Assembly: GCA_003251275.1 (NCBI GenBank)
Contig: QKGJ01000132.1
Location: 1 to 41,043, forward strand
Source of the DNA: Ignavibacteria bacterium
Lineage (GTDB): Bacteria > Bacteroidota > Ignavibacteria > UBA10030 > UBA6906
Reading direction: 5' to 3'
DNA: 41,043 nucleotides
Shown: positions 6,720 to 30,782 of the stretch, one piece after another
How positions within the stretch are numbered: position 1 is the first letter of the stretch
Layout of the letters: each line of letters starts with the position of its first letter
Program-made: the position numbers and the translations under genes
The notes under the pieces: model-generated
The model's input: the letters and a program-made list of their open reading frames with translations, nothing else
Databases searched by the model: none
Told to the model about the DNA's origin: nothing

Positions 6720-6750
6720 AAGAAACCCTGCTTTATTAGCAGGGTCTCTT
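6720..6750. terminator. Bidirectional hairpin terminator between the convergent radical SAM and csp genes
   Basis: AACCCTGC-TTTATTA-GCAGGGT, flanked by a T-rich tract on the minus strand (TTTCTTG) and CTCTTGTT on the plus strand. Confidence 0.6.
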
Positions 6751-6770
6751 GTTCCAACCTGTTGTTGTTT

Positions 6771-7762: not shown

Positions 7763-8413
7763 ATGAAAAGAATCCAGATCCTTCTTATTGAAGACAATCG
7801 GCTCCTGCGCGAGGGGCTTTTGGTCATGCTCAAAGAGCAACCTGATTTTAAGGTGTGTGCCTCACCCGGGAACAGTGATGCTCTCTTGCGCGCGAAGAAG
7901 TCGAAACCCAACGTGATTCTCCTTGACCTCGGTTTACGCAGTCAGAATAGCCTTCGCCTGCTGGGATTGCTCAAGAAGAGCGCTCCTGATGCAAGAGTGA
8001 TTGGAATGGATCTTGTTCCGGTGCAGGAAGAACTTGTTCAATACGTGCAAGCAGGAGTCTCAGGGTTTGTCCTGAAGGATGCGACGTTCAATGAGTTTCT
8101 AAGGACGATTCGTTCTGTCGCAAAGGGCGCAAACGTTTTGCCTCCCCTGCTCACTGACTCACTCTTCTCTCAGATTGTTCAATACGCCACGCACAAGAAA
8201 AAGGGTAATCCGTTTGCCTCGGTGAGGATGACACGCCGGGAACGAGAGGTCATTGCCTTAATAGCGGAGGGGCTGAGCAACAAGGAGATTGCCAACCGAC
8301 TTCATCTTGCCACAGACACTGTCAAAAGTCACGTTCACAACATCCTCGAAAAACTCGCTCTCCACACCCGTCTGGAAATTGCCCGATTCGCACACACCAG
8401 CGATTCTTACTAA
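7763..8413 (+). CDS. Response regulator, NarL/FixJ (LuxR-type HTH) family
   Basis: The REC domain shows ILLIEDN, the phospho-acceptor context VILLDLGL and a conserved K in FVLKD. The C-terminus has the LuxR HTH: REREVIALIAEGLSNKEIANRLHLATDTVKSHVHNILEKL. Confidence 0.9.
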   Translation: MKRIQILLIEDNRLLREGLLVMLKEQPDFKVCASPGNSDALLRAKKSKPNVILLDLGLRSQNSLRLLGLLKKSAPDARVIGMDLVPVQEELVQYVQAGVSGFVLKDATFNEFLRTIRSVAKGANVLPPLLTDSLFSQIVQYATHKKKGNPFASVRMTRREREVIALIAEGLSNKEIANRLHLATDTVKSHVHNILEKLALHTRLEIARFAHTSDSY

Positions 8414-10659: not shown

Positions 10660-10731
10660 CAGGTGAGGTAGTCATTGGGAAAGAATCGGTCGAGATGGGG
10701 CGCCATTTTATGAAGTGTGCCCATTGTATTG

Positions 10732-10804
10732 TGCCCCCAACCGGATTCGAACCGGTGTTACAAGCTTGAAAAGCTCGTGTCCTAGGCCTCTAGACGATGG
10801 GGGC
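10732..10804 (-). tRNA. tRNA-Glu (anticodon UUC)
   Basis: The reverse complement reads GCCCCCA-TC-GTCTAGAGGCCTAGGACA-CGAGC-TTTTCAA-GCTTG-TAACA-CCGGTTCGAATCCGG-TGGGGGC-A. The cloverleaf is near-identical in layout to E. coli tRNA-Glu, with anticodon loop U-U-UUC-A-A. CCA is not encoded. Confidence 0.9.
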
Positions 10805-10840
10805 GAACAAGGAAGAATTTCGAATGAGAAATGATGTCCG

Positions 10841-11206
10841 TTATCGGTTCACTTCTTTTGCTGCTTGAGCCGTTTTCCTTGACGTAACGAAAATCAAAAC
10901 CAGCTCGTCTCGCTCGCCATGGAGTCGGTTGAACTAATCGTCGCGGACCAGCTTCATTTCATGAAGAGTTCCAGCCAGTACTGGGTTTCGTGAGACTCCT
11001 CGACAACAATGGCAATTTTCGTTACAAGATTGGCCTTCGATCTTGCCCTACAAGCCGAACGATAATTGGCTCCAACGGAAGTTGCAGATCTAATGACTTG
11101 CCGGGAAATTATTTCTGCCGCCTGAGTCGAGGAAGATTGGCCAAGGCATCCATAACATCAAGTACAAATTTCTTGTTCTGTCCCTGAGTTCATCACCCTT
11201 CGCCAT
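10841..11206 (-). pseudogene. Decayed four-helix-bundle protein gene (23S rRNA intervening-sequence protein family, PF05635-like)
   Basis: The minus strand reads MAKGDELRDRTR (frame a), then KFVLDVMDALANLPRLRRQK* (frame b), then EIISRQVIRSATSVGANYRSACRARSKANLVTKIAIVVEESHETQYWLELFMK* (frame c). It then returns to frame a with KLVRDD*FNRLHGERDELVLIFVTSRKTAQAAKEVNR*. That is three -1 shifts (near 11171, 11115 and 10957) plus an in-frame TAG at 10934..10936. The SxTSxGANYR..xRARSKA...K..IV.EE..ET.YWLEL signature is characteristic of the family. No intact ORF of 60 aa or more exists on this strand. Confidence 0.75.
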
Positions 11207-11266
11207 ATCCTTCTCTCCGAGTCCATAGCTCAATCACCATTCAGAATTCCTCATTCCGCATTGCTG

Positions 11267-11340
11267 TGACCCCGCCGCGACTCGAACGCGGAACCTACAG
11301 CTTAGAAGGCTGTTGCTCTATCCAATTGAGCTACGGGGCC
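11267..11340 (-). tRNA. tRNA-Arg (anticodon UCU)
   Basis: The reverse complement reads GGCCCCG-TA-GCTCAATTGGATAGAGC-A-ACAGC-CTTCTAA-GCTGT-AGGTT-CCGCGTTCGAGTCGCGG-CGGGGTC-A. The anticodon loop is C-U-UCU-A-A. Confidence 0.9.
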
Positions 11341-11508
11341 GGCAAGTTAAGCAGGAATTTCATCACGATGGTTCAACTTTTCCCCGATTTCAAGAATCGG
11401 ACGAGAATATACGGGTTTTTGAATCCTGTTGCAATCCAGGAACCAAACTGCCCCTCGGTTCTCGAGAGGCAGCTGAAAAAACTCAAGACAACTATTTCGT
11501 GTCGGTTG

Positions 11509-11583
11509 TCGGGGCGACAGGATTCGAACCTGCGACTTCTTGCTCCCAAAGCAAGCGCTCTAGCCGGGCTGAGCTACGCCCCG
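11509..11583 (-). tRNA. tRNA-Pro (anticodon UGG)
   Basis: The reverse complement reads CGGGGCG-TA-GCTCAGCCCGGCTAGAGC-G-CTTGC-TTTGGGA-GCAAG-AAGTC-GCAGGTTCGAATCCTGT-CGCCCCG-A. The anticodon loop is U-U-UGG-G-A. Confidence 0.9.
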
Positions 11584-18167: not shown

Positions 18168-19709
18168 ATGCCTGTTCTTGATTTGGATAGTTTTCAGAAG
18201 AAAATAATTGTCCGCCCAATTCAGATGGAGGATTATCAAAAAATTGTCGACTTACAGCTAAAGTGTTTCCCGGGAATGAAACCGTGGACGCGCGAACAAA
18301 TTGAAAGTCAGCTCAGCTTGTTTCAAGCGGGCCAGATCTGCGTGGAGTACGATGGGGAGATCGTTGCATCCAGCAGCAGCCTGATTCTTGACTTTGCGCT
18401 GTATGGCGAGATGCATACCTGGCAGGATATCTCCAACGCAGGGTACATCACCAACCATAATCCAGAAGGGAACACCCTTTATGGAATTGAAATTATGGTG
18501 GATCCCGCATATCGGGGGATGAAGCTCGCGCGCCGCCTGTACGATGCGCGCAAGCGGATCGCTGTTGAAATGAACCTGATGAGGATTGTTATCGGCGGCC
18601 GTATACCCAATTATGGGAAATACTCCGATAAAATGACCGCGAGAGAATATGTCGACAAGGTGACACAGAAAGTGCTGGTCGATCCGGTGTTAACCACGCA
18701 ACTTTCAAATGGCTTCGTTCTCAAACGGTTGATGGGTTCCTATATGGATTCCGATAAGGAGTCAAAGGGTTATGCGACTCTTCTGGAGTGGACGAATCTG
18801 GATTACCAACCGGACCCCGACCGGGTGTTTGTGGCAGCGCAGCCGGTCAAAATCTGCGTCGTTCAGTATGAGATGAGACAGATCAGTTCGTTTGAGGAGT
18901 TCGTCCGCCAATGCGAATTTTTTATTGACGTGGCCTCTGATTATCGCTGCGACTTCATCCTCTTCCCGGAGATTTACACGACTCAGATGCTCAGCTTTAT
19001 TGAAGCATCCCGTCCGGCTCTTGCGGTACGCAAGCTTGCTGAGTTTACGCCCCAGTACGTTGAGACATTCACGCGACTGGCGGTAAAGTACAATATTAAC
19101 ATTATTGGCGGTTCACATTTTTGTATCGAAAACGATCGTCTTTATAACGTCGCGTACTTATTCCAGCGCAATGGCACCATCAACAAGCAGTATAAGCTTC
19201 ATATTACGCCAAACGAGCGGCGATGGTGGGGAGTCGAACCGGGAAATTCTGTCGAAGTCTTCGAAACGGACAAGGGAAAGATTTCGATTCAGATTTGCTA
19301 CGACATCGAGTTCCCCGAAGTGAGCCGCATCGCGGTGGAAAAGGGAGCGCAGATCATCTTCGTTCCGTTCTGCACAGACGAACGCTACGGCTATCTGCGC
19401 GTACGCTATAGTGCGCAAGCCCGGTGTATTGAAAATCATGTCTATGTTGCCATTGCCGGTACGGTCGGCAATCTCCCCTCCATCCATAATATGGACATTC
19501 AGTATGCGCAATCAGGTATTTTTACCCCTGCCGATCTGCAGTTTGCCCGTGATGCCGTCGAGGCGGAAGCAACGCCGAATATCGAGACAGTGATTGTCGA
19601 TGAAGTTGATCTTGAACTGCTCAAGCGGCATCGACAAAGCGGCAGTGTGTTGAACTGGCGTGATAGGAGGACCGATCTCTACGAAATCCATTACAAAGGA
19701 AACACTTGA
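18168..19709 (+). CDS. Bifunctional GNAT N-acetyltransferase / carbon-nitrogen hydrolase (nitrilase superfamily) protein
   Basis: The N-terminus has the GNAT acetyl-CoA motif (VDPAYRGMKLARRLY). The C-terminal CN-hydrolase carries the Glu-Lys-Cys triad contexts ILFPE, YKLHITPNE and ISIQICYDIEFPE. Confidence 0.85.
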   Translation: MPVLDLDSFQKKIIVRPIQMEDYQKIVDLQLKCFPGMKPWTREQIESQLSLFQAGQICVEYDGEIVASSSSLILDFALYGEMHTWQDISNAGYITNHNPEGNTLYGIEIMVDPAYRGMKLARRLYDARKRIAVEMNLMRIVIGGRIPNYGKYSDKMTAREYVDKVTQKVLVDPVLTTQLSNGFVLKRLMGSYMDSDKESKGYATLLEWTNLDYQPDPDRVFVAAQPVKICVVQYEMRQISSFEEFVRQCEFFIDVASDYRCDFILFPEIYTTQMLSFIEASRPALAVRKLAEFTPQYVETFTRLAVKYNINIIGGSHFCIENDRLYNVAYLFQRNGTINKQYKLHITPNERRWWGVEPGNSVEVFETDKGKISIQICYDIEFPEVSRIAVEKGAQIIFVPFCTDERYGYLRVRYSAQARCIENHVYVAIAGTVGNLPSIHNMDIQYAQSGIFTPADLQFARDAVEAEATPNIETVIVDEVDLELLKRHRQSGSVLNWRDRRTDLYEIHYKGNT

Positions 19710-20941
19710 CGGATCTTCTTCGATCACCGGCTGGTCGTCGATTCCTCTTTGCGGTTCTCTATCTGAGTGAAGGTGCGCCCATCGGATTTATCTGGTGGGC
19801 GTTGCCGGCTCGCCTCCGTGTCGCCGGTGTTCCTATCGAACAAATTGCCTCGTTGAGCGCGCTCCTGATCCTTCCCTGGACACTGAAGTTCCTCTGGGCT
19901 CCCCTCATTGATTCACTCCGCTCTTCCCGATGGACATTGCGCTCGTGGATCTTTTCCGCCCAAACGATTATGGGTTTCTCGCTGGTGCCTCTTCTGTTCG
20001 TGGATCTCCATACGGACTTTCCCCTGATTGTCGGACTCTTGTTCGTGCATGCCGTTGCTGCGGCAACGCAGGATGTTTCTGTCGATGCTCTTGCCATCGC
20101 TTCCGTTTCCGCGGAAGAAAAAGGTTCGGTGAATGGTTGGATGCAGGCAGGGATGCTGCTCGGTCGGTCTGCTCTGGGGGGAGGCGCATTGCTCCTCGCC
20201 TCTACGTTCGGTGACACGGCGGTGATCTCACTCCTGATCGGCGTCATTTGGTTCTCGATGGCGTTTCTCTTTTTTTCAGGAGTGGAAGCAATGCATACAG
20301 CCCACGAGGATCAGTGGAAGCGGATGAAAGATGTTGCAACCCGTCTCGGAACCCTCCTTCGTCGTCGGTCGACATGGCTTGCCCTTGTATTTGCACTCAT
20401 CGGAGGCGCCGGATTTGAGGCGGTGGGAGCGGTAGTGACACCATTTCTGATCGACATGGGAATCTCCACAGAGGAGACTGGCTGGTTCATGGCATTCCCT
20501 GTGGTTGTTGCCATGATGATCGGTGCCGTTGCAGGTGGGTATTTGTCAGACGTGATGGGAAGAATTCGCACGGTCAGTTTCTTCCTGCTCTTCATGGCTG
20601 TTCTGATTCTCGCCGTCAGCATCGTCATTGAAACCGGCAGCGCCGGAAATTCTGCAAGTCTGTTTGTATTGCTCGGTGTCCTCTATCTTGGGATCGGTCT
20701 TTTTACAGCTTCATCCTATGCGCTGTTTATGGATATGACGGACGTTCGTCTTGGCGCGACACAATTCAGCGCCTACATGGGTGTGACGAATGCATGCGAA
20801 ATGTGGTCGGCATTTGTGGTGGGACAGTTGGTAGGAGGGTTTGGTTATGCGATTGCGTTTGCCGTTATGGCCGCTGTTTCTCTTGCGGCGCTCCCGGTTC
20901 TCAAACGCCTCTCCCGTTCTCCGAAACACTCATTTTCCTAA
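19706..20941 (+). CDS. MFS transporter, AmpG/PAT family
   Basis: 411 aa with about 12 TM helices. LPWTLKFLWAPLIDS and AATQDVSVDAL match the AmpG signatures (KFLWSPLMD and ASQDIVFDAW in E. coli AmpG, from memory). The TTG start overlaps the upstream stop (TTGA), so the exact start is uncertain. Confidence 0.8.
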   Translation: MTDLLRSPAGRRFLFAVLYLSEGAPIGFIWWALPARLRVAGVPIEQIASLSALLILPWTLKFLWAPLIDSLRSSRWTLRSWIFSAQTIMGFSLVPLLFVDLHTDFPLIVGLLFVHAVAAATQDVSVDALAIASVSAEEKGSVNGWMQAGMLLGRSALGGGALLLASTFGDTAVISLLIGVIWFSMAFLFFSGVEAMHTAHEDQWKRMKDVATRLGTLLRRRSTWLALVFALIGGAGFEAVGAVVTPFLIDMGISTEETGWFMAFPVVVAMMIGAVAGGYLSDVMGRIRTVSFFLLFMAVLILAVSIVIETGSAGNSASLFVLLGVLYLGIGLFTASSYALFMDMTDVRLGATQFSAYMGVTNACEMWSAFVVGQLVGGFGYAIAFAVMAAVSLAALPVLKRLSRSPKHSFS

Positions 20942-21220
20942 AGCGCTGACTCTCCTTGCAAACTCCACATCGAGCGTACTGAGGCCACCGAGGTCATGCG
21001 TCATCAGATCGATGACGACGCGATTGTAGACATTCGACCAGTTCGGATGATGGTTGAGCGATTCCGCGACGAGCGCCACGCCGGACATAAATGACCATGC
21101 ACCCGCAAAGTCCTTAAACTTGAACTCTCTGTGCAACTTTCCATTCTGGACGGACCACCCGGGAAGAGAGGAGCCAAGTTGCTGGATCTCGGTGTCATTG
21201 AGTTTTTGTCGTTCCGTCAT
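20930..21220 (-). CDS. 4a-hydroxytetrahydrobiopterin (pterin-4a-carbinolamine) dehydratase, PCD/DCoH family
   Basis: 96 aa: ...LPGWSVQNGKLHREFKFKDFAGAWSFMSGVALVAESLNHHPNWSNVYNRVVIDLMTHD. The HHP...W.NVYN...L.TH core is diagnostic of the family. Confidence 0.9.
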   Translation of the reverse strand: MTERQKLNDTEIQQLGSSLPGWSVQNGKLHREFKFKDFAGAWSFMSGVALVAESLNHHPNWSNVYNRVVIDLMTHDLGGLSTLDVEFARRVSALGK

Positions 21221-21221
21221 T

Positions 21222-22334
21222 CTACGAAATGATCGCAGCTTTTTCGAAGGTCAGTAATTCCTTGCAGTCGGAGATCATGGGCTTGATGCCTTCGGTATGG
21301 ATTACCTTGCTCCTTGTCGAACCATGCCGCGGGAGATAGACCTTGCCGATTGGGACAAAACCCAGATCCTTCATCAGCATCGAAATCTCAAACGGATAAT
21401 CGATCACCCCGAAGGACCCTGTCACGAGTTCAGCAATTATCGAGACCCGACCGCCGTTCTTGAGAATGCGGCTTGCTTCGCGCGTAATTGTTTTGAATTT
21501 CAGAAGTGTTTCGGCCTTCGCTGCTGCGGCCGAGGCGGCACCCCCGTTGGTTTGCGAGAAAAACTCCGATGGCGCGTCGAGGAACACGTAATCGACGCTG
21601 GCGGTTTCCTCCGGGATGCCGGTCTGTAGAATATTCGCTCTCGTTATCCGCTCATCTGCCGGTTCAATGTCGTACATTTTCACTTTCCTGTCGGAAAGAA
21701 ACTCTGTCCCTTCTACGACGTCCCCCGTGGTACCGCTTCCTGCCATCGGATCGACGATCCTTGCACCAGGCTTTGTATAGTAGAACAAGGCGTTTGCCAC
21801 GATCTGTCCGGGGAGACGTCCCTTGACGCCGGACTTCCCGAAGCGAGGGTCAGGGATGTCAAACGACCAGATGGTTTTTTCCTTGAGTTCAAACCCGTAT
21901 TGCGTTCGCTCATCGGAGCGGCGGGCAAGCTCGTCGTCACGGATTTTCTTTTGGAGATCAGAAATCGTCCACTTGTTTTGGACCGCCATCTTCTCGTAGG
22001 CTTCGCGTTGCTTGCTGTCGTTGACTTTTGTGGCAAGCTCGAAATAGAAAATTTCCGGCAGGGGTTTCTTCTCAACGTTCGGGTAGTAAGTGTAGAACAT
22101 CTGGCACTGCTTCAGCATTTGAAAGGGGAACTTAAACCCCGGCACCTCCGCCATCTTTTTCAGAATTTGTTCCGAGTAGATACCTTCCTTGAGCGCAGTC
22201 GGGACGACCTTTTCGACAAGGAATTTACCCAAGTCCCAATAGTTATCCGCGGAAAAAGAATTGAGCTTTTCAACCAGCGTGTCGAGCGAGGATGAGGATT
22301 TTTGACGGGCGGTTGTGGTGGATGCGCGTGCCAT
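21222..22334 (-). CDS. Putative SAM-dependent methyltransferase with a DUF1016_N-like helical N-domain and a non-canonical motif IV
   Basis: 370 aa. Motif I is ARIVDPMAGSGTTGDV, preceded by RLPGQIVANALFYYTK, which resembles the substrate-loop/motif X of Trm11 and N6/N4 methylases. The position expected for (D/N)PP(Y/F) reads VFLDAPSEF. The N-terminal segment ELATKVNDSKQREAYEKMAVQNKWTISDLQKKI resembles the YhcG/DUF1016 N-terminal domain (from memory). Confidence 0.6.
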   Translation of the reverse strand: MARASTTTARQKSSSSLDTLVEKLNSFSADNYWDLGKFLVEKVVPTALKEGIYSEQILKKMAEVPGFKFPFQMLKQCQMFYTYYPNVEKKPLPEIFYFELATKVNDSKQREAYEKMAVQNKWTISDLQKKIRDDELARRSDERTQYGFELKEKTIWSFDIPDPRFGKSGVKGRLPGQIVANALFYYTKPGARIVDPMAGSGTTGDVVEGTEFLSDRKVKMYDIEPADERITRANILQTGIPEETASVDYVFLDAPSEFFSQTNGGAASAAAAKAETLLKFKTITREASRILKNGGRVSIIAELVTGSFGVIDYPFEISMLMKDLGFVPIGKVYLPRHGSTRSKVIHTEGIKPMISDCKELLTFEKAAIIS

Positions 22335-22427
22335 GCTCCCTCCATGATGTTACGGGTAGGATAGCGGAATTCCAGAAGGAATGCAATAAAGGGAGAGGTA
22401 GTTTTTCAGCGAAAGAACTCTTCCTAT

Positions 22428-23156
22428 CTACGAGGTTTCAAGCAGCGCCGCGACTCGCTGGAGGTCTTCTGCAGTATCAATCTCCATGCAGCGTTTGTCC
22501 TGCACATCAACAGCGTAGATTTCGCTCCCATTTGCTATTGTCTCCTGGAATGCAGCTTCATAGAAGTGGTTCACTTCCTTGCGCACGAGCATCTTGTCTT
22601 TCAGGATTTCGAAGAGGAGTGAAACATATTTCGCACTGAACTTCTCAATACCAATGGATTCTCCCGCCGCCTCTGTCGGATCGACTACTTTGCTAATCTG
22701 CAGGATGCGACCGGCCTTATCGGACAGGACCTTAATCTCTTCTTCACCAAGGGGAAGTCCGGTTTTCATTGCAAGACAGTTTTCGTGTCCTGATTGAAGG
22801 AGCACTCTGATGATACTTTCATCAAAGATGATATCGCTGTCCAGCAGGAGCATATCGTCGTTCATGACCAACTCTCGCGCTAGCCAGAGGGAGTAAATGT
22901 TGTTTGTGGAATCAAACAACGGATTGGTCAGAAACGATATATGAAGATCCGGAAACTTGCTCCGCACGAACGCATGTATTTGCTCTTCCAGGTATCCCGT
23001 CACCATGACAATGTCGCGAATATTATTGGTGCGGAGGTTCTGCAGTGTGCGGCCGAGGATTGTCGCGTTGCCAACGCGGAGGAGGCACTTCGGTGTGCTG
23101 TCGGTAAGCGGTCGGAGACGCGAGGCAATACCGGCAGCGAGTATCACTCCCTTCAT
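22428..23156 (-). CDS. Nucleotidyltransferase (LicC / sugar- or alcohol-phosphate cytidylyltransferase-like)
   Basis: 242 aa. The N-terminal signature MKGVILAAGIASRLRPLTDSTPKCLL is the GxGxRL NTP-transferase loop. The gene overlaps the upstream gene by 4 nt (ATGA). Confidence 0.8.
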   Translation of the reverse strand: MKGVILAAGIASRLRPLTDSTPKCLLRVGNATILGRTLQNLRTNNIRDIVMVTGYLEEQIHAFVRSKFPDLHISFLTNPLFDSTNNIYSLWLARELVMNDDMLLLDSDIIFDESIIRVLLQSGHENCLAMKTGLPLGEEEIKVLSDKAGRILQISKVVDPTEAAGESIGIEKFSAKYVSLLFEILKDKMLVRKEVNHFYEAAFQETIANGSEIYAVDVQDKRCMEIDTAEDLQRVAALLETS

Positions 23157-24037
23157 TTCTGTTCCTGCATGCCGAGTTGCCGATCAATCCGTTTTTGTAA
23201 TACAAGGAGAATCAACGCGAGAACATTGCCAACCGCAGCGATTCCCCAGAGGTAAATATCAAGCCGGTTAAGAAGGGAGGTGACGATCAGAAGTGTCCAC
23301 TGCGTTGTGGGACCGAGGTACGTCCAGAGGTGAATGATCACCCGGTTTTTTTGACGGAAGACTTGCGGATCGACTGCTGTGGCGGGTTTTTCTTTTTTGT
23401 TTCCAGAGGTGCCGCGCGCTTGCAGCGCCGAATAGCGAAGGTAAATCCAGATGAGAATACGGTCGAACAGCTTGCGCTTTTCCCTCTTCAGAGTCTCGTA
23501 CTCTTGTTCGAACCCTTTCACCCCTTCATCCAGAACACTCTTTCGTTGAAGAACAATGTCGAGAAATCTGTTCCGGTAAAAATCAAGGAGGCCGGACTGC
23601 ACTGCATTACTGATACCGGCTGCGACCGTTAATGCCCACATGGCTCCCGGCGAAGAAGAGGTGCCCGCATACCCGATACCAATACCGAGATAGACGGCAA
23701 CGCTCACCGCGTAATCTGCGACTCCATCGAGGATGCGACCGATGGCCGAACCGCTGTTTTGTAGTCGTGCAAGCTGGCCGTCACTGCAATCGATAACATG
23801 GTAGAGGAGGTAAAGGACACCGCCCCATGCGTATGCTTCGGGAGTTCCATACGTATAGCTGAAACCGCCAAGCACGCCAAAGACCATCGAAGCGACCGTG
23901 AGCTGGTTCGGGGTGATCTCCGTGTGTGCGATGAGCTTGACGAAGAAGAAGGCGAGGGGTCTATAAAAGAACAGATCGAAAAACTCCTCGACGGCGGGGA
24001 GCTTTAACGTTCTGGTGTACTCAGCGATCAATCCCAA
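23153..24037 (-). CDS. CDP-alcohol phosphatidyltransferase family membrane protein
   Basis: 294 aa and polytopic. The complete family motif D-G-x2-A-R-x8-G-x3-D-x3-D is present as DGQLARLQNSGSAIGRILDGVAD. Confidence 0.85.
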   Translation of the reverse strand: MGLIAEYTRTLKLPAVEEFFDLFFYRPLAFFFVKLIAHTEITPNQLTVASMVFGVLGGFSYTYGTPEAYAWGGVLYLLYHVIDCSDGQLARLQNSGSAIGRILDGVADYAVSVAVYLGIGIGYAGTSSSPGAMWALTVAAGISNAVQSGLLDFYRNRFLDIVLQRKSVLDEGVKGFEQEYETLKREKRKLFDRILIWIYLRYSALQARGTSGNKKEKPATAVDPQVFRQKNRVIIHLWTYLGPTTQWTLLIVTSLLNRLDIYLWGIAAVGNVLALILLVLQKRIDRQLGMQEQK

Positions 24038-25091
24038 TCACGGGCCTCCCGCTGGGTTCAGCGACTGCCATGAATGCCTGGATTGCTTCGACAAGTTTCT
24101 TGTTCTGTTCCTGTGTCCCGATGGTAATGCGGAGATGCGTGTTGAGAAGTTCCTCATCCATAAATTTGATGATGAGCCCCCGGTCGGTCAGGAATTTCTT
24201 GAGGTCTGCTTTTATCTCCGCAGGAATTTTGACCAGGATGAAGTTTGCGTCTGATTTATAAACGGTGAAACCGGGCAAGCGTCCCAGTTCGTCGTAATAG
24301 ATTTTCTTGTCGGTTGCCATCTTCGCCGAGATCCCGCGGTAGTAGTCGACTGAGTCGAGCGCTGCAATTGCGACCATTTCGGAGACCCGATGATACCCGA
24401 GGTACACATTGTTATACTGAACGATTTCAGTTGCCTCCAGTCCGCATACGGCGTAGCCGATACGCATGCCGGCTAGGGCGTAGTATTTCGAAAATGTCCG
24501 GATGACGATAAGTTTTGAGTGAATCGCAATCAGATCACGGACGTGCTTCTTCTCGTCATAATACACATACGCCTCATCGAGGACGACAACTGCATCCTTC
24601 AACTTCGGCAGTACCATCTTCAGGTCTTCGAGCGAAATCGAATTTCCCGTCGGGTTATTGGGAGAAGCAAAGAACACAACCTTCGGCTTCTTCTCCTGAT
24701 AGACCTTGAGGAATTGTGTTGCGTTAAACTCAAAGCCATCCGTTCCTTCGATCAAGGGATACTCGGAGCTGAGTCCGCCGACTTCATCCGCGATATTCTT
24801 GTAGTACCACCATGAGTATGCCGGGATGAGAAGGCGTTCTCCTTTTCCGAGATAGCAGCGAATCACCTGCTTCAGCAAATGCTCCGCGCCGTATCCGATG
24901 AGGATCTGATCTTCCGTGACCGCAAAATCCTTTGCCAGACGTTCCGAGAGCACACTCTTCGAGCCGCGGGTAAACACGCGCGTATAGGTGCTGAGTAAAG
25001 GAGTGCCGGCGTTCCGGAGTGCTTCGAAACAGGCGGGAGAAGGGCCGTAGTTATTCTCATTCCTGTCCAGATAAATCTTTTCAGTTGCCAT
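24021..25091 (-). CDS. Class I/II PLP-dependent aminotransferase of the HisC / CobD (histidinol-phosphate aminotransferase / threonine-phosphate decarboxylase) family
   Basis: 356 aa. It has LDRNENNYGPSP near the N-terminus and the PLP-lysine context IRTFSKYYALAGMRIGY. The 3' end overlaps the next gene by 17 nt. Confidence 0.85.
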   Translation of the reverse strand: MATEKIYLDRNENNYGPSPACFEALRNAGTPLLSTYTRVFTRGSKSVLSERLAKDFAVTEDQILIGYGAEHLLKQVIRCYLGKGERLLIPAYSWWYYKNIADEVGGLSSEYPLIEGTDGFEFNATQFLKVYQEKKPKVVFFASPNNPTGNSISLEDLKMVLPKLKDAVVVLDEAYVYYDEKKHVRDLIAIHSKLIVIRTFSKYYALAGMRIGYAVCGLEATEIVQYNNVYLGYHRVSEMVAIAALDSVDYYRGISAKMATDKKIYYDELGRLPGFTVYKSDANFILVKIPAEIKADLKKFLTDRGLIIKFMDEELLNTHLRITIGTQEQNKKLVEAIQAFMAVAEPSGRPVIGIDR

Positions 25092-25231
25092 AAGACCTGA
25101 GATCGTTTTGAGAAAGGTTCAGAAGTGAACTATCGTTATAGGGGAATTCGCTTGTCGTTGATTCAAGGTACTGTCTTGCATTGAGAGTTTCAAGCCCTTT
25201 GTGGGAGTTTTTCCCTGACAGTTCGAACCGA

Positions 25232-26872
25232 CTAATCGGTGGTGAGTATGCTATTTTGCCCGCCGAATCCATCTGGATCTTGAGCGGGATTCTGCGCATC
25301 GTTGATCCACTTGTCTCCATTCAACACGAATTTATATCGATAGCGTCCCGGTGCGGGTAAGTGCACGACACCGGCCCATTGACCGGCCACGACTTCATGG
25401 AGTCGATCTCCTTCGGAATTCCACTCGTTGAAGTCGCCCGCTACGGCGACAGTATCTGCTTCTTCAAAACAAACGAAGATAGCACCGCGCTTTCCGACTT
25501 GATTATTCGGGAGTGAATGTGAGAAGTGTACACCATTGGCCAACGCCGTGAGAGCGCTACTGACTGCCTTGGAGGGCTCCAGCGCTCCTCCTCCTTGTTG
25601 TTCGCGTGGGATGTCCGCTATCGGTTCTGCCGTATGAATTAGCAATTCCTTGATTGTCTTGTGTGAGAGCAGTGGGTTTGCCTGCAGCATTTGGGCAACG
25701 ACAGAACTGACAATAGGAGCTGCGAAAGATGTTCCGTCCACTCCTTTATAATACGGCGCGCAGTAGTGCATCTCGCTGATCTTTTCCCGTGCCCAACCCT
25801 TGTAATCGCCATGCTCAATGCCTTGGGGAATATCTCGACGAGCATTTCGTTCTCGCTCAAGAATCTTGGATATAGTGCGCGTTGTCGAGCGGAGAATGGC
25901 AAAGAGAGTTTTTGATTCATGATACTGATCGGTGTGGGGAAGAATTGGGGCGGCAACCCAGATTGCAGGTGCAATCAACTCCGGCTTTTCATCCCCATCA
26001 ACGGTCTTTCCGTATGTTGAATGATACATTCCACGCAAGCCTGTGTTCAATTCATTTCGATCATCCATACCTCCAACGGTAATCACCGAATGGGCACTGG
26101 CAGGGGGTACGATAGGTCGGGAAGGATCGTTTCCTCCTGCAGCGATTACAACGATGCCTGCCGCTACCGCTTCTTCCGCCGCCTGGTTCACGGGACTTTC
26201 GCTGGAGGGAGTGGGATCATCATCTCCAACGGAGATACTCAGGATTCCAATGTTGAATTCTCGGCGGTGTTCGATTACCCATCGAATCCCCTTTGCAAGA
26301 TTCTGAGTGCTTACGCGACGTGTCGCAGAATCCATGACTTTGACGAGAACAGCAGTTGCCTCTGATGCAATTCCGCGATAGAGTCCTCTGGAAAGATGGC
26401 CGTTCCCGGCTGCCGCAACGGACGTCATCGTTCCGTGCCAGCTTTCCACATGAGGCGACTGAAAATACTTTTCCGTGCGCGATGAATCGGTGACATCGAC
26501 AAGCGCGCGAATTCGATTCACGGGCTTCTTCAGGTCCGGATGGGGATAAAATCCAGAATCCAGGAATGCGATTGTGATTCCCCTTCCCGTGAATCGTGGA
26601 TCAGCGTTGAGGCGAAGGGACGTGGGAAGGAGGGCGAATTCATTACGGACACGGTCGCGGAAGAGGCTTCCCTTTGCACGACTAGCAAAGTGCTCTTCCA
26701 GCGTGTCGAACTCGTTCAGGTAGAGGCAGCGCTCACACAGTCCTTGTGCAAGGTTCCACGACGGTAGGCGGCGTTGAATTCTCGTGGCGACGTCCTTCTC
26801 CCTTTTTCCGCGCAGCGATCGAAGAAGCGTACTCGCAACGGAGCCGCAAACAGGACAGCGGTAGAACTTCAT
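25232..26872 (-). CDS. Subtilisin-family (S8) serine peptidase with an N-terminal 4-Cys zinc ribbon and a C-terminal CBM48/AMPK-beta-like glycogen-binding domain; no signal peptide
   Basis: 546 aa. The Cys pairs are CPVCG ... CERC. The catalytic contexts are IAFLDSGF (Asp), SWHGTMTSVAAAGNG (His) and GVDGTSFAAPIVSSVVAQM (Ser). The C-terminus VAVAGDFNEWNSEG...GRYRYKFVLNGDKWINDAQNP is typical of the E-set/CBM48 fold. Confidence 0.9.
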   Translation of the reverse strand: MKFYRCPVCGSVASTLLRSLRGKREKDVATRIQRRLPSWNLAQGLCERCLYLNEFDTLEEHFASRAKGSLFRDRVRNEFALLPTSLRLNADPRFTGRGITIAFLDSGFYPHPDLKKPVNRIRALVDVTDSSRTEKYFQSPHVESWHGTMTSVAAAGNGHLSRGLYRGIASEATAVLVKVMDSATRRVSTQNLAKGIRWVIEHRREFNIGILSISVGDDDPTPSSESPVNQAAEEAVAAGIVVIAAGGNDPSRPIVPPASAHSVITVGGMDDRNELNTGLRGMYHSTYGKTVDGDEKPELIAPAIWVAAPILPHTDQYHESKTLFAILRSTTRTISKILERERNARRDIPQGIEHGDYKGWAREKISEMHYCAPYYKGVDGTSFAAPIVSSVVAQMLQANPLLSHKTIKELLIHTAEPIADIPREQQGGGALEPSKAVSSALTALANGVHFSHSLPNNQVGKRGAIFVCFEEADTVAVAGDFNEWNSEGDRLHEVVAGQWAGVVHLPAPGRYRYKFVLNGDKWINDAQNPAQDPDGFGGQNSILTTD

Positions 26873-26940
26873 AATATTGAAATACGGAGATTTTTTTGGA
26901 ATGTCTAAGTACAGAACATCGTGGTCAATAGCAATGATCG

Positions 26941-27654
26941 CTAGGAAAAAACGCGCGCCATCAGTTTCCGTTTCGCCACGGGAAGCATGGTCTCCTGGAA
27001 CGGAAAGTCGATATCAGTTTCTGAAAGAAATGTCGCAGGATTTGGTAGGTCCGTGTACCGCTCCATCAGGCCATGCTTATAGGACTCGGGAGACCGATGA
27101 AGGTGTGACTCTTCGATGGATTCCAGGACACGCGTCTTAAGGGCGCGGTATCGCTCCGTAGTGGAAGAAAACAGTGATACCTCGTAACGCAACAAGTGCA
27201 GAAGAGAGAGTTTCTTGTCGGGAACAAACCAGTACCCCTCTTCGAGATAGACGGGCAGAATACCCACTTGATCGATTGATACATGTTCATCCACAAAATT
27301 GTAGATTTCCATTCCCTCTTCAATAGCATGTTTCAGAAGCGGCATGGCCCAGGTGATCAACGTCGCAAGTTCGTCCATGTCGGTGCCGCCGTGCGGGAGA
27401 GAGTCATACACGAGCTTTCCTTCAACGAGATTGACTTCTTTGAGCGATCGCGGGAGACGTTCTTCCATGTCATGCAGTTTCTGAAGAAGATCAGCGACCG
27501 CGTTGTGCAAATCGATGAGTTCACGAAGGGTCGGATAAAGCCGGTTGCGCGAAAACTCGTCGTAGGCTTCCTTCAGCCCCTGTTGAATCTGGTACTGCCT
27601 CCATTCCAGATCCCGGTTGCCTGAGGTAAATAATGACAGATTAAGAGAAGCCAT
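26941..27654 (-). CDS. Hypothetical cytoplasmic protein, upstream of and co-directional with the S8 peptidase
   Basis: 237-aa ORF with no TM segment or signal peptide. I recognise no motif. A 68-nt gap separates it from the peptidase gene. Confidence 0.6.
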   Translation of the reverse strand: MASLNLSLFTSGNRDLEWRQYQIQQGLKEAYDEFSRNRLYPTLRELIDLHNAVADLLQKLHDMEERLPRSLKEVNLVEGKLVYDSLPHGGTDMDELATLITWAMPLLKHAIEEGMEIYNFVDEHVSIDQVGILPVYLEEGYWFVPDKKLSLLHLLRYEVSLFSSTTERYRALKTRVLESIEESHLHRSPESYKHGLMERYTDLPNPATFLSETDIDFPFQETMLPVAKRKLMARVFS

Positions 27655-27905
27655 TTTTGCGAACCTCCTTGTTAAGAATTCTCGGCTTTCCCACGCGCTT
27701 ATGTAGATTCGATCTCTTTTATACCCTACCTAAATTATGCCAAGAACGTTCCAATCCCATAGCACTCAGATCCCCACTCTGCTAATCAAGAGTGAAAAAC
27801 AGGCTCTGTGATGAAGTTCTGTTGTCACTTGGTTATGTTTTTCCCATATTGACTCAGAGCTTCAAGAAACCAATTCCAACCAGCCACTTCCTTTTTGTGG
27901 GGTAA

Positions 27906-29054
27906 ATGACTGAACCATTTGAATCAGTGTTGCTGAATCCGCCGAAAGAAGTTGATATTGTCGCGATTGAACGGGAACTGTCGGCCTTATGGAAGAAAGC
28001 GGCGGAGCCTGCGGCCGCGGATCAGGCGACCCCGGTCGTAAGAGCCTGTTCGCTCAACCTTATTGTCGTCTCTCGCGATCGTCAAGAGCTCGATTCTCTT
28101 GGCAACATTATAGGCGACGTCACGCTTGAGCATCCGGCTCGAACCTTTCTCATCGCTACGGATCGTACAGGCTCCTCAACCCTCGATTCGTGGATCTCGG
28201 CACGATGTTCACTTCCAGTAGCTGGCGGCAAGCAGGTCTGTTGTGAACAGATCAATCTTGTCGCAGGAGGAAATGAGATTGCAAAGGTCACGAGCATCGT
28301 TACGTCGCTGTTGGTGCCTGACGTGCCATCCGTGCTGGTATGGAGGGATACGGTAAGACCCAATGACCAGCTCTTCTCATCTCTATCGCGTGTGATGGAT
28401 CGCGTCGTGATGGATTCCGCACTTGAACGTGATCCGGAAAAAGCGCTTCGGATTTGGGAAAAAAACATTCGCGAGAGTGAAGGAAGGGCGTCATTCGGCG
28501 ACCTCGGCTGGACTCATTTGACTTCCATGCGCAATATGCTCGCGCACGTTTTTCAGCCACGCGAAATGCGACCTCACCTGCTTCAAATCGACTCATTGTC
28601 GATCACCTATTCTTCCTCTGCAAATCCATTTCACTCCGGATTGAGTCAGGCGATGTTACTGGTCGGCTGGCTTGCTCAACGAATGCGCTGGAGGCCCATT
28701 CATCAATTGAGGCGTACAGATGCCACGATGACCGCAAAGCTTCGATTTGATGAGATAGCAATTAATGTTCGACTCATTGAAGGTTCTCTCGTTGGACATT
28801 CCGGTGGACTCATCGGAGTCAACCTGCACACAACTTCGGGCATGGAAATATCTCTTGCTGCAACGGGATCGTCTCATTGTGTGATGTGTACGGTCAGTGA
28901 TGGAAAGATGAACCAGGAGGAAATGCTGACAACTGGTGAGGATTTGTCTGACTCGCTGCTTTTGGGGAGAGAGCTGGAAGTAATGCAGCGCGACAACCTG
29001 TACGAGGATGTGTTGAGAACGCTTCTTCCTCTTCTTGGAGAAAATCAGGGATGA
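27906..29054 (+). CDS. opcA: OpcA-like glucose-6-phosphate dehydrogenase assembly protein
   Basis: 382 aa. The N-terminal pattern VDIVAIERELSALWKK......PVVRACSLNLIVVS......LEHPARTFLI resembles OpcA of actinobacteria and cyanobacteria (from memory). The gene is translationally coupled (ATGA) to pgl. Confidence 0.6.
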   Translation: MTEPFESVLLNPPKEVDIVAIERELSALWKKAAEPAAADQATPVVRACSLNLIVVSRDRQELDSLGNIIGDVTLEHPARTFLIATDRTGSSTLDSWISARCSLPVAGGKQVCCEQINLVAGGNEIAKVTSIVTSLLVPDVPSVLVWRDTVRPNDQLFSSLSRVMDRVVMDSALERDPEKALRIWEKNIRESEGRASFGDLGWTHLTSMRNMLAHVFQPREMRPHLLQIDSLSITYSSSANPFHSGLSQAMLLVGWLAQRMRWRPIHQLRRTDATMTAKLRFDEIAINVRLIEGSLVGHSGGLIGVNLHTTSGMEISLAATGSSHCVMCTVSDGKMNQEEMLTTGEDLSDSLLLGRELEVMQRDNLYEDVLRTLLPLLGENQG

Positions 29055-29791
29055 AAGGTCGCCTGGAGGTATACGATACCCCGCACACGCTGGTGGAGGC
29101 GGTCGCAGTTCAGGTGCAGCAACTCCTGAGCCGGGCGGTTGCCGGTCGCGGTGCGGCATCGCTTGCCTTTTCAGGTGGGTCCACTCCCAGACATATATAT
29201 GAGCTCCTTGCGACGGATCGTTTTCGGGCGAAGATCGATTGGAATCGTGTTCATTGCTTTCTTGGTGATGAGCGCTGTGTGCCACCATTCCATCCTGAGA
29301 GTAATTTCCGGATGATCAGCGACGCCCTCCTCAATAAGATCACTATTCCCGACAAAAACGTTCACCGTGTCAAAACAGAACTCCCACCAGAAGAAGCTGC
29401 TGAGGCATATGAGAAAGAGATTCGAAATCTCTTCCAGCTCAAAACAGGGGAATTTCCCGAGTTCGACGTACTGCTGCTTGGCATGGGAGAAGATGGTCAT
29501 ACAGCGTCACTGTTTCCGGGCACTACGGCAGTTAACGAGACCGAGAAGCTTGCGACGGCCGTCCAGGGACCGACCGTGAAGATTCCGCGCGTGTCGCTTA
29601 CCTTTCCCACAATCAATCATGCTGCGGAGATTATCTTTATTGTTTCAGGAAAAGGCAAGGCAGCGATTCTCCAACAGGTCCTGAACGGAACCGTCATGAA
29701 CTACCCTGCGCAAATGGTCAATCCATTGAAGGGACGCTTGACATGGATGGTAGACCGCAACGCGACGATGCAATTAGAGGGAGTTCACTAG
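29051..29791 (+). CDS. pgl: 6-phosphogluconolactonase
   Basis: 246 aa. LAFSGGSTPRHIYELL and LLLGMGEDGHTASLFPG are the classical Pgl/NagB-family signatures. Confidence 0.9.
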   Translation: MKGRLEVYDTPHTLVEAVAVQVQQLLSRAVAGRGAASLAFSGGSTPRHIYELLATDRFRAKIDWNRVHCFLGDERCVPPFHPESNFRMISDALLNKITIPDKNVHRVKTELPPEEAAEAYEKEIRNLFQLKTGEFPEFDVLLLGMGEDGHTASLFPGTTAVNETEKLATAVQGPTVKIPRVSLTFPTINHAAEIIFIVSGKGKAAILQQVLNGTVMNYPAQMVNPLKGRLTWMVDRNATMQLEGVH

Positions 29792-29792
29792 T

Positions 29793-30782
29793 ATGATTCT
29801 TGCCGGTGATATTGGTGGGACCAAAACAAATCTTGCCTACTTTACCGCGGAATCGGGTAAACTGATTCGGAAACAATTACAAAGCTATCCCAGTCGCGAT
29901 TTCAAATCTCTCACCGATGTGTTGGCAAAATTCCAAGCCGACTTTCCTTCATCGGTCACGGCTGCTGCATTTGGTATTGCTGGACCAGTGGTGAACGGAC
30001 GGAGTAAGCTTACGAATCTTGGTTGGGATGTTATCGGTGCAGACGTTGCCTCACATTTGAGCCTGCCAGCAGTGGGTCTTCTGAATGATCTTGAGGCAAC
30101 TGCGTATGGAACGCTTCGTCTGGCCCCAAGCGAATATCTGGTTCTGAACAACGGCGTCGTCGCCGAAAAGGGGACAATAGCCGTGATTGCTGCTGGAACC
30201 GGTCTCGGGGAAGGTGGATTGCACTGGGACGGAAAGCGATACAGGACAATTGCATCTGAAGGGGGGCACACGGACTTCGGACCACGTGATGAAATCGAAA
30301 TCGATCTCCTCCGATTTCTAAAGCCGAAATACGGTCGGGTGAGTTATGAACGCGTTGTTGCTGGCCCGGCGATCACTGACGTGTATGACTTTCTTCGCAA
30401 ACGAAGCGGCGAGCCTGAACCGGAATGGCTCAAGCTGGCGCTTACCTCAGGGGATCCTTCTGCAGTGATATCGAAAGCGGGACTTGAAGGAAAGGATGCG
30501 GTGAGTGAACAAACCCTTGATCTCTTTGTTTCATTGTATGGAGCCGAAGCGGGCAATCTTGCATTGAAGATTCTTGCAACCGGTGGAGTGTTTGTTGGTG
30601 GAGGCATAGCACCCAAGATCCTCCCGAAAATCCAAAACGGTTCGTTCTTTTCCTCTTTTAAGAACAAGGGTCGCTATGAGGGACTCATGAAGAATATTCC
30701 GATTTGGATTGTCCTGAATGACCAGACCGCCCTTCTTGGTGCCGCACACTACGCCGAACTGATATTGACAGAGTCCTTGTAG
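29793..30782 (+). CDS. glk: Glucokinase
   Basis: 329 aa. It shows ILAGDIGGTKTNLAYF (phosphate-1 loop), GIAGPV, LLNDLEATAYG and GGVFVGGGIAPKI, matching the bacterial Glk family. Confidence 0.9.
   Translation: MILAGDIGGTKTNLAYFTAESGKLIRKQLQSYPSRDFKSLTDVLAKFQADFPSSVTAAAFGIAGPVVNGRSKLTNLGWDVIGADVASHLSLPAVGLLNDLEATAYGTLRLAPSEYLVLNNGVVAEKGTIAVIAAGTGLGEGGLHWDGKRYRTIASEGGHTDFGPRDEIEIDLLRFLKPKYGRVSYERVVAGPAITDVYDFLRKRSGEPEPEWLKLALTSGDPSAVISKAGLEGKDAVSEQTLDLFVSLYGAEAGNLALKILATGGVFVGGGIAPKILPKIQNGSFFSSFKNKGRYEGLMKNIPIWIVLNDQTALLGAAHYAELILTESL

Follow-up and report, generated by a model that had tools for sequence, protein, structure and literature searches.

In a stretch of 41,043 nucleotides from an Ignavibacteria bacterium (contig QKGJ01000132.1 of assembly GCA_003251275.1; the whole stretch is called the window below), three overlapping genes of the minus strand encode an enzyme dependent on pyridoxal phosphate (PLP), a cytidine diphosphate (CDP)-alcohol phosphotransferase (CPT) and a nucleotidyltransferase (NTase). 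Comparison with related loci suggests, with fair rather than strong confidence, that the three genes form a self-contained module of the Kennedy type, which would make an amino-alcohol phosphate, activate it and attach it as a polar head group. The genes and their two junctions are, from the upstream end:

24021-25091, minus strand: gene of the PLP enzyme, 356 amino acids, ATG start, Pfam domain Aminotran_1_2 (PF00155, 1.9e-39)

24021-24050, minus strand: junction of the PLP and CPT genes, with a GGGAGG Shine-Dalgarno sequence at 24050-24045, the TTG start at 24037-24035 and the PLP stop codon TGA at 24023-24021

23153-24037, minus strand: CPT gene, 294 amino acids, TTG start, Pfam domain CDP-OH_P_transf (PF01066, 1.7e-12)

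23153-23166, minus strand: junction of the CPT and NTase genes, with AGGAA at 23166-23162 and an ATGA start/stop overlap at 23156-23153

22428-23156, minus strand: gene of the NTase, of LicC/PntC type, 242 amino acids, ATG start, Pfam domains NTP_transferase (PF00483) and NTP_transf_3 (PF12804)

The proposed route has three steps. The PLP enzyme, as an aminotransferase, would convert a small phospho-ketone, R-CO-CH2-O-phosphate, into an amino-alcohol phosphate; our best guess is the conversion of dihydroxyacetone phosphate (DHAP) into serinol phosphate, with glutamate as the amino donor. The NTase, as a cytidylyltransferase, would condense the amino-alcohol phosphate with cytidine triphosphate (CTP) into a CDP-amino-alcohol. 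The CPT, of the AF2299/DIPPS type, would then move the phospho-amino-alcohol onto a membrane-bound hydroxyl, releasing cytidine monophosphate (CMP); with diacylglycerol or a ceramide-like lipid as the acceptor, the product would be a zwitterionic phospholipid. What we infer in this scheme are all the substrates and products, which of the PLP and NTase steps comes first, the use of CTP and the acceptor. The initial annotation had proposed a three-step scheme of this kind, and the comparative evidence, including an exchange of partners in Prevotella and the acidic positions of the NTase, lends it support.

The PLP and NTase genes are found as a pair with three different transferases: the CPT of the window's type, the CPT of the type associated with inositol lipids in Bacteroidales, and LicD. 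A cluster of an abundant gut Prevotella has the order DUF5686/CarboxypepD_reg - CPT - LPG_synthase_TM - PLP - NT, and is collinear with a cluster of B. finegoldii and P. nigrescens that reads MIPS - NDP-sugar synthase - hypothetical - CPT - LPG_synthase_TM - HAD, where MIPS is the inositol-3-phosphate synthase. Heaver et al. (2022) proposed that such MIPS clusters encode a Kennedy-like CDP-inositol route to inositol lipids, a route that is still experimentally unconfirmed (PMC9246714). Between the two clusters, identity is 39-45% for the CPTs and only 19-22% for the NTases, and the inositol-type NTase has none of the motifs that define the amine type. Since the transferases are similar and the NTases are not, we conclude that the alcohol-phosphate synthase and its NTase were exchanged jointly around a transferase shared by both cluster types. 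No other evidence speaks as strongly for a joint supply of a CDP-activated head group by the PLP enzyme and the NTase.

At the gut Prevotella loci L086/L087 (positions 1-7793; loci are cited by our L numbers), an FAD amine-oxidase-like protein, an SDR and a protein of 194 amino acids with no Pfam matches are encoded upstream of the DUF5686-CPT-LPG_synthase_TM-PLP-NT cluster.

The third transferase, LicD, appears in oral taxa. Prevotella sp. oral taxon 299 F0039, found by tblastn among plasmid-labelled replicons, carries a PLP gene whose product is 42.6% identical to that of the window and has all its signature motifs; it is followed by an orthologous NTase (45.8%), and then by LicD in place of the CPT. 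The same PLP-NT-LicD arrangement occurs in Hoylesella marshii and, together with a GT4 glycosyltransferase, in Phocaeicola oris; Hoylesella nanceiensis carries the PLP gene. Across the transferase contexts, identity to the window proteins stays at 42-43% for the PLP enzyme and at 39-46% for the NTase.

The three-gene arrangement is more than chance. In a survey of one genome per species, a CPT profile yielded 80 loci, and these were examined for matches to the three proteins of the window. The full trio occurs within 5 kb at 27 of these loci, amid unrelated flanking genes, and at 19 of the 28 loci whose CPT is a close relative (at least 200 bits). The carriers belong to the Ignavibacteriota, Bacteroidota (Bacteroidales and Saprospiraceae), Acidobacteriota/Aminicenantes, Krumholzibacteriia, Eisenbacteria and Spirochaetia, with one metagenome-assembled genome (MAG) labelled Chromatiales. 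Two long Ignavibacteria contigs have the same trio in the same order, with entirely different flanks; elsewhere the order varies, being PLP-NT-CPT in L062 and CPT-PLP-NT-CPT2 in L025, L035 and L036. Proteins that fuse the two last functions, CPT::NTase, were also found (P0352, P0369, L073).

The Ignavibacteria loci of this last order present a feature of their own: a second, divergent CPT paralogue, resembling DIPPS/AIPS, stands on the other side of the PLP-NT pair (9737-10597 in L025, 9675-10619 in L035, and in L036), which suggests two acceptors for one donor.

The PLP and NTase genes co-occur across at least eight phyla and have thousands of metagenomic homologues. The suggestion that the pathway is uncommon thus has to be abandoned: the cassette is widespread, and is carried by human oral and gut Prevotella. 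The soluble CDP-alcohol logic that had been read into the pairing of an NTase with a CPT fares better, given the association of PLP enzyme and NTase across phyla, the three alternative transferases and the CPT::NTase fusions.

The junctions within the window agree with the coordinates given earlier for three overlapping minus-strand genes. The PLP and CPT genes overlap by 17 nucleotides (24021-24037), the PLP stop codon lying 14 nucleotides within the CPT gene, and the CPT and NTase genes overlap by the 4 nucleotides ATGA (23153-23156). The spacing is 7 nucleotides from GGGAGG to the TTG of the CPT, and 5 from AGGAA to the ATG of the NTase. The TTG start is credible because of that Shine-Dalgarno sequence, and because the N-terminus MGLIAEYTRTLK..VEE corresponds to the family consensus MxLxxEYKxSLKxxExEE from residue 1. 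The longer overlap arises from a C-terminal tail of the PLP enzyme that is specific to the window: most relatives have 340-346 amino acids instead of 356, and residues 347-356 have a predicted local distance difference test (pLDDT) score below 50 in the AlphaFold model. The closest named homologues come from MAGs of Ignavibacteriaceae and Melioribacteraceae, at 55-60% identity; the nearest relatives overall are metagenome proteins, at 87-94%, and an exact look-up of the window's CPT gave no record. These relatives place the source, an uncultured bacterium, near the Ignavibacteriota in the Fibrobacteres-Chlorobi-Bacteroidetes group.

The best matches of the NTase in the PDB are LicC of S. pneumoniae (1JYK, 4.7e-18) and the PntC-AEPT protein Tde1415 of T. 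denticola (6PD1, 1.3e-13). The protein displays an N-terminal LAAGIASRLRPLT..TPK loop, the motifs LLLD106SD108, EEEIK, GESIGIE and FYE199, and a C-terminal EID; its nucleotide loop, of the form G-x-G-(T/S)-R...K, reads LAAGIASRLRPLTDSTPK, with Ala for the second Gly. The core of the LicC/PntC type is present: D108 aligns with the Mg-binding D107 of LicC, and E226-I-D228 with LicC E216/D218. In these two enzymes the positions that face the amine are D105 and D192 of LicC and E104 and E196 of PntC, and an aromatic box for choline is described for LicC (PMC6697681). In the family alignment, the NTase of the window is acidic at both positions, with D106 aligned to LicC D105/PntC E104 and E199 to LicC D192/PntC E196. 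It has no choline box: LicC Y85 is replaced by T and W136 by E, and Y190 aligns with F.

The motifs LLLDSD, EE(I/M)K, GES(I/V)G and (F/Y)YE are conserved in NTases from Ignavibacteria to Prevotella, Gemmatimonadota and Myxococcota. Considering the acidic amine-facing positions and the missing choline box, the likeliest substrate, rather than phosphocholine, is a small, cationic phospho-alcohol that carries an amine; CTP would be the nucleotide, judging from family membership. The resemblance to LicC extends to gene context, as relatives of the cassette pair with LicD. In Treponema, LicCA-Cpt provides a CDP-choline route to phosphatidylcholine in which a CDP-alcohol phosphotransferase uses a CDP-amino-alcohol, as we propose here. 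Unlike these systems, the cassette has no choline kinase or choline uptake gene, and its phospho-alcohol would be made de novo by the PLP enzyme.

The CPT has the complete catalytic motif of its family, located by regular expression as D83-x2-D86-G87-x2-A90-R91-x8-G100-x3-D104-x3-D108, and scores 48.4 bits on PF01066 (cut-off 22). Its AlphaFold model (pLDDT 86.6) contains only helices, and the protein is predicted to be a polytopic integral membrane protein. In both sequence and fold its best PDB match is AF2299 of Archaeoglobus, followed by IPCT-DIPPS and the PIP synthases. The family is large: a limit of E<=1e-3 takes in 1567 homologues, and one of E<=1e-30 leaves 123 clusters at 50% identity. 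Public annotation calls the transferase "hypothetical" or "phosphatidylglycerophosphate synthase". Distant members of the family adjoin other soluble cytidylyltransferases: CTP_transf_like with an SDR and an acyltransferase in Parabacteroides, an NTase with Glyphos_transf and LicD in Cloacimonadota. These neighbourhoods suggest that the whole CPT family uses soluble CDP-alcohol donors.

The first of these neighbourhoods is a conserved cluster, CTP_transf_like cytidylyltransferase - SDR - CPT - acyltransferase, seen at L076 (5771-8707), L080 and L068, in Parabacteroides segnis, Tannerellaceae and Porphyromonadaceae. It is a candidate for another soluble CDP-alcohol route to a head group, for example that of phosphoglycerol lipids.

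As in the IPCT/DIPPS systems, the NTase is here paired with a CPT and is fused to it in some relatives. The differences are many: identity to IPCT/DIPPS and AF2299 is just 13-19%; the bacterial fusions have the order CPT::NTase, the reverse of IPCT-DIPPS; the CPT of the window does not have the N-terminal cytosolic domain of AF2299; and the window provides no inositol-phosphate synthase as a partner. On the family model NF041135 (IPCT/DIPPS, cut-off 580 bits), the CPT scores 37 bits and the NTase 67. The product, finally, is probably a lipid rather than a solute.

The opposite possibility, that the same enzymes make something other than a lipid, such as a phosphodiester solute resembling di-myo-inositol phosphate (DIP) or a decoration of a polyprenol-linked or glycan surface polymer, draws on the same relatives: of the closest solved structures, AF2299 has no known substrate and IPCT-DIPPS acts on soluble inositol phosphate. 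In oral Bacteroidales, too, the cassette has LicD and a glycosyltransferase as partners, and CPT relatives adjoin Glyphos_transf and LicD in Cloacimonadota. However, the gut Prevotella cassette sits in a cluster that is collinear with the inositol-lipid cluster, down to a gene for an MprF-type flippase-like protein. Moreover, mesophilic anaerobes account for most of the carriers, whereas solutes of the DIP type are made by thermophiles or halophiles, and the flanks of the operon in the window hold no genes for glycosyltransferases or polymer export. We regard a non-lipid product as improbable.

A lipid is thus the likely acceptor of the window's CPT, by analogy, and the parallel with the lipid clusters of Prevotella and Bacteroides favours diacylglycerol or dihydroceramide. 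The general plan is that of the proposed inositol-lipid clusters of B. vulgatus and Prevotella, which combine MIPS, an NTP transferase, a CDP-alcohol phosphatidyltransferase and HAD (PMC9246714): an alcohol-phosphate synthase, then a soluble NTase, then a membrane transferase to a lipid. The gut Prevotella version is closer still, having the orthologous CPT together with LPG_synthase_TM and DUF5686. In the window, on the other hand, an enzyme derived from HisC stands in the place of the inositol-3-phosphate synthase, the NTase is of the other subfamily, and the CPT belongs to a different subfamily (20-28% identity); neither MIPS, HAD, LPG_synthase_TM nor DUF5686 was found there.

On TIGR01141, the equivalog model for HisC, the PLP enzyme scores 251.7 bits, below the cut-off of 276.55; on the CobD model TIGR01140 it scores 137.2 bits against a cut-off of 290.55. 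The other trio-linked members obtain 212.9-246.5 bits on the HisC model, and a true Bacteroidales HisC (L081) obtains 339.6. The higher HisC score (252 versus 137 bits) favours an aminotransferase. The AlphaFold model (pLDDT 89.4) has HisC structures as its best PDB matches in sequence and fold, with template-modelling (TM) scores of about 0.8: Medicago HISN6, for instance, has 30% identity and a TM score of 0.80. S. enterica CobD reaches 0.83 and SMUL_1544 reaches 0.71; as the fold is common to the whole superfamily, such searches do not separate HisC from CobD chemistry.

Residues were mapped by aligning 19 trio-linked sequences, called clade T below, with the HisC of E. coli (K-12 record), 28% identical to the PLP enzyme, and with other HisCs. 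The residues that bind PLP are all kept: Y55, N157, D184, Y187, T211, S213, K214 and R222 of E. coli correspond to Y36, N146, D172, Y175, T199, S201, K202 and R210 of the window, K202 being the predicted Schiff-base lysine, and they are conserved across the 19 sequences apart from one T211 to S replacement. The histidinol-phosphate site, according to the E. coli and C. glutamicum structures, consists of Tyr20, Asp85 (an Asn in certain species), Tyr110, Arg322 and Arg335; the residue types at positions 20, 85, 110, 322 and 335 of E. coli HisC agree with this. Of this site, clade T keeps the C-terminal R335. The N-terminal arm with Tyr20 is missing from the PLP enzyme, whose reading frame cannot extend upstream, and in all 19 members D85 is replaced by E, Y110 by W, M112 by Y or F, and R322 by K.

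Clade T has acquired invariant features as well: R10 in the motif LDRNE, an inserted loop of 4-5 residues with G.KS, and the motifs LKQ, SWWYY and YLGY. The complete signature reads LDRNE, G.KS, GAE[DH]LLKQ, SWWYY, SKYY, YLGY, IKF, RITIGT. In a neighbour-joining tree of HisC and HisC-like sequences (computed without bootstrap, and with decarboxylases left out), all cassette-linked enzymes, including those of Prevotella, form a single long-stemmed monophyletic clade, separate from the HisCs of E. coli, Proteiniphilum, Corynebacterium and Medicago and from a HisC-like group of Myxococcota. Altogether, the PLP enzyme appears to be a catalytically competent derivative of HisC with an intact PLP site and a changed substrate site.

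Could it nevertheless be the ordinary hisC of the organism, placed by accident next to two lipid or sugar genes? Several sources do annotate relatives as histidinol-phosphate aminotransferase, or as a "family protein" of that name, and HisC is the best-scoring family. NCBI, however, names relatives merely "family protein" or "PLP-dependent aminotransferase"; the trio-linked members, at 213-252 bits, fall below the equivalog cut-off; the arm is missing and the pocket residues are changed; and the gene stays linked to that of the NTase in different phyla and in three transferase contexts. No his gene was found by Pfam scan across the 41-kb window, and in the loci examined clade-T genes are never adjacent to his genes. 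The earlier view that this is not a housekeeping HisC is therefore upheld, and we give the contrary next to no credence. As to a second hisC in a carrier, the unannotated F0039 replicon in PLSDB was not among the top matches listed for the true Bacteroidales HisC.

If the enzyme is an aminotransferase, the question becomes which ketone it accepts. Of the four substitutions in the pocket, three (D to E, Y to W, M to Y/F) introduce bulkier residues, and so would fit a smaller R group than the imidazolyl-methyl of the HisC substrate. Given that HisC takes a keto substrate of the form R-CH2-CO-CH2-O-phosphate, a smaller R makes DHAP, in which R-CH2 is HO-CH2, the leading candidate. The closest functional precedents for this step are two C. 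jejuni enzymes, Cj1437 and Cj1436, set beside clade T by function; we take Cj1437 to be a HisC-family enzyme. According to PMC11800397, Cj1437 transaminates DHAP to (S)-serinol phosphate and Cj1436 decarboxylates L-serine phosphate, so that PLP enzymes there make amino-alcohol phosphates for surface structures from central metabolites. Their products go straight to the ATP-dependent amidation of glucuronate, unlike the CTP activation proposed for the cassette. By these analogies serinol phosphate is the amine we would name first, as a tentative choice whose chances are well short of even.

The second C. jejuni precedent leads to a different proposal, in which the PLP enzyme decarboxylates a phospho-amino acid. 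It would make either ethanolamine phosphate from L-serine phosphate, the reaction of Cj1436 and SMUL_1544, or aminopropanol phosphate from L-threonine phosphate, the reaction of CobD. In that case the operon would represent a CDP-ethanolamine pathway of bacteria, the true Kennedy route, to phosphatidylethanolamine or ceramide phosphoethanolamine. In insects, enzymes of the CDP-alcohol family do make ceramide phosphoethanolamine from CDP-ethanolamine. The HisC/CobD fold family includes such decarboxylases, Cj1436 acting on L-serine phosphate (PMC11800397); the CobD and SMUL_1544 structures match the model with the TM scores given above; phosphoserine is a universal metabolite; and the NTase pocket carries carboxylates like that of PntC, which handles a small amine, aminoethylphosphonate (AEP). 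On the other side stand the HisC score, far above that for CobD, and the branching of the PLP enzyme from HisC-like sequences in a tree that held no decarboxylases. Bacteroidales make phosphatidylethanolamine by other routes, so that an ethanolamine cassette would be redundant there. The additional invariant Arg and Lys residues of clade T fit either chemistry equally. We consider a decarboxylase unlikely, and ethanolamine phosphate as the amine a weaker candidate than serinol phosphate.

An orthologue of the NTase also occurs in Myxococcota, where it and a CPT adjoin an NTase::HisC-like fusion or a separate HisC-like gene (L061, L070, L073, L066). The N-terminal arm is present in these HisC-like proteins, which reach 280-308 bits on the HisC model, above its cut-off, and have A, T or S in place of D85. 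In the clusters L061 (3704-10460), L070 (5941-12554) and L073 (7001-10609), the orthologous NTase is either standalone or fused to the CPT, and a second NTase is fused to a HisC-like domain; in L061 and L070 the NTase/HisC-like cluster is followed by a HEAT-repeat protein of 820 amino acids.

One may then ask whether the PLP enzyme still makes L-histidinol phosphate from imidazole-acetol phosphate, for an imidazole-bearing head group delivered through CDP-histidinol. HisC is its nearest family, and the Myxococcota neighbours look even more like HisC; the unusually acidic NTase pocket (EEE, GES, YE) would suit a doubly basic substrate; and L077 and L078 have NT-CPT with no dedicated PLP gene nearby, as expected if a housekeeping enzyme supplied the substrate. 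But the contacts of HisC with imidazole and phosphate are invariantly changed in clade T (Y20 lost, D85 to E, Y110 to W, R322 to K), and the Myxococcota proteins are likewise without D85. A dedicated paralogue is not obviously needed when housekeeping HisC already makes histidinol phosphate, and the literature searched contains no natural lipid with histidinol, the only match for phosphatidylhistidinol being a synthetic lipid. The proposal is quite improbable, as is histidinol phosphate as the amine; what is left of our belief, after serinol, ethanolamine and histidinol phosphates, goes to some other amine.

The NTase::HisC-like fusions can also be read as hinting at a different order of steps, in which the NTase would begin by cytidylylating a precursor, either phosphorylated or a phosphonate, and leave the CMP-linked intermediate to the PLP enzyme. 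FrbH, whose PLP domain is presumably a CobD-like decarboxylase, is the model. An NTase domain and a PLP domain are joined in it, and fusions of PntC with AEPT exist (PMC6697681). The loss of the phosphate-capping arm, together with the replacement of R322 by K, might leave room for a nucleotide on the phosphate. Yet the NTase is acidic at both amine-contacting positions, so that its substrate probably bears the amine already; this, with the changed imidazole and phosphate contacts of clade T, is why we give little weight to histidinol and to an early NTase step alike, the latter being very unlikely.

The phosphonate version, with AEP as in PntC, is a special case of that order, and also carries low weight because phosphoenolpyruvate (PEP) mutase is absent: neither its Pfam family nor that of phosphonopyruvate decarboxylase was found among window reading frames of at least 150 amino acids, nor among the scanned neighbours and the Pfam tables of related loci. 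PntC (the CMP-AEP synthase), Tde1415 and FrbH (Rice et al. 2019, PMC6697681) nonetheless offer an instructive parallel, in that a LicC-like NTase and a PLP enzyme produce a nucleotide-activated small primary amine for cell-surface tailoring, and that PntC has Glu/Asp at the amine-contacting positions. They differ from the cassette in the class of the PLP partner, a class V AEP transaminase instead of a class I/II enzyme of the HisC type, and in their phosphonate substrate, where that of the window is presumably a phosphate ester.

Returning to the amino-alcohol scheme with amination first and a lipid acceptor, several points weigh against it or against parts of it. The amine cannot be read from the sequence, and the case for serinol phosphate is built on the analogy of its skeleton with that of imidazole-acetol phosphate, on reasoning about pocket size and on unaligned precedents. 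Nor does sequence by itself tell whether an enzyme of this fold is a transaminase or a decarboxylase, and CobD fits the model as well as HisC does (TM score 0.83), so that the fold is no help on this question. DIPPS uses a soluble acceptor and the LicD variants reach glycans, which makes a lipid acceptor in the window likely rather than proven. The window has neither LPG_synthase_TM nor DUF5686, the markers of the Bacteroidales lipid clusters. Finally, several Ignavibacteria loci (L016, L018 and L020) have the PLP gene at a distance of 3 kb or do not contain it. In the loci with the PLP gene 3 kb upstream, the intervening genes (DUF192 and polyphosphate kinase) and those downstream (rhomboid and GcpE) were considered as additional pathway genes, and judged unrelated.

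Taken as a whole, the operon follows the logic of the Kennedy, IPCT-DIPPS and LicC-LicD schemes and of the alternative inositol-lipid scheme, yet is a member of none of them, because it has no kinase, MIPS, choline box or PEP mutase, and because its first enzyme is a new offshoot of HisC. Assembly of the cobamide loop by CobD, CobY and CobS was rejected as well: the middle gene has the CDP-alcohol transferase motif and no CobS domain, the NTase is LicC-like, and no cob genes are nearby.

The literature search found no paper describing the cassette, its product, CDP-serinol, or natural phosphatidyl-serinol or phosphatidyl-histidinol. It is tempting, if somewhat speculative, to suppose that the cassette makes a CDP-amino-alcohol new to biology, such as CDP-serinol, as the donor of an unrecognised zwitterionic head group of phospholipids or sphingophospholipids. 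This donor would be shared by two CPT subfamilies and LicD, and would label lipids or glycans across the Fibrobacteres-Chlorobi-Bacteroidetes superphylum and beyond, abundant oral and gut Prevotella of humans among them.

No cobamide, inositol or phosphonate genes were found in the window; an Rfam scan of 20500-28000 gave no matches; and a scan for promoters and terminators returned counts at or below shuffle expectation, and is uninformative for this phylum. The operon is flanked upstream by an S8 peptidase, and downstream by a DUF1016/methylase-like gene and a pterin dehydratase; farther out are proteins with type IX secretion system tails, an OpcA-6PGL-glucokinase cluster and radical-SAM genes.

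Some of these neighbours deserve mention for themselves. The peptidase directly upstream (25232-26872, minus strand) is an S8 subtilase of unusual architecture, with an N-terminal CxxC...CxxC and a C-terminal CBM48/AMPK1_CBM glycogen-binding module. The gene at 21222-22334 (minus strand) combines an N-terminal DUF1016 domain with a weak, sub-threshold match to N6/N4 DNA methylases; starting 93 nucleotides downstream of the last stop codon of the operon, it may share its transcript, and it is not conserved beside the cassette elsewhere. What looks like a two-gene operon at 18168-20941 (plus strand) encodes a GNAT::carbon-nitrogen-hydrolase fusion of 513 amino acids, overlapping by 4 nucleotides an AmpG/RhtX-like MFS transporter of 411 amino acids with a TTG start. 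The cluster at 27906-30782 (plus strand) comprises OpcA, the assembly protein of glucose-6-phosphate dehydrogenase, better known from cyanobacteria and actinobacteria, with 6-phosphogluconolactonase and glucokinase. In a region comprising 4682-6673 and 8850-10415 (plus strand) and 10731-11583 (minus strand), two large radical-SAM proteins, one with a B12-binding domain, flank a LuxR-type response regulator, with a cluster of tRNA-Glu, tRNA-Arg and tRNA-Pro nearby.

The cassette, then, is conserved, widespread and mis-annotated, and its presence in many phyla, including human Prevotella, suggests that it probably marks an undescribed polar head group. If the scheme is correct, a family of thousands of proteins now annotated as histidinol-phosphate aminotransferase, or as a family protein of that name, would be reassigned to head-group biosynthesis, and the chemistry of bacterial membranes and surfaces would be extended by a novel polar head group or by a novel pathway to one. 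Bacterial Kennedy-type pathways would then be modular: swapping the alcohol-phosphate synthase and its NTase would alter the head group, while the transferase and the accessory genes stay in place. In its human-associated carriers, the cassette adjoins genes homologous to those of the inositol-lipid cluster, which in Bacteroides has effects on the capsule and on fitness in the gut. Its product, in the Hoylesella, Prevotella and Phocaeicola of humans, could be a surface or membrane molecule of relevance to the host.

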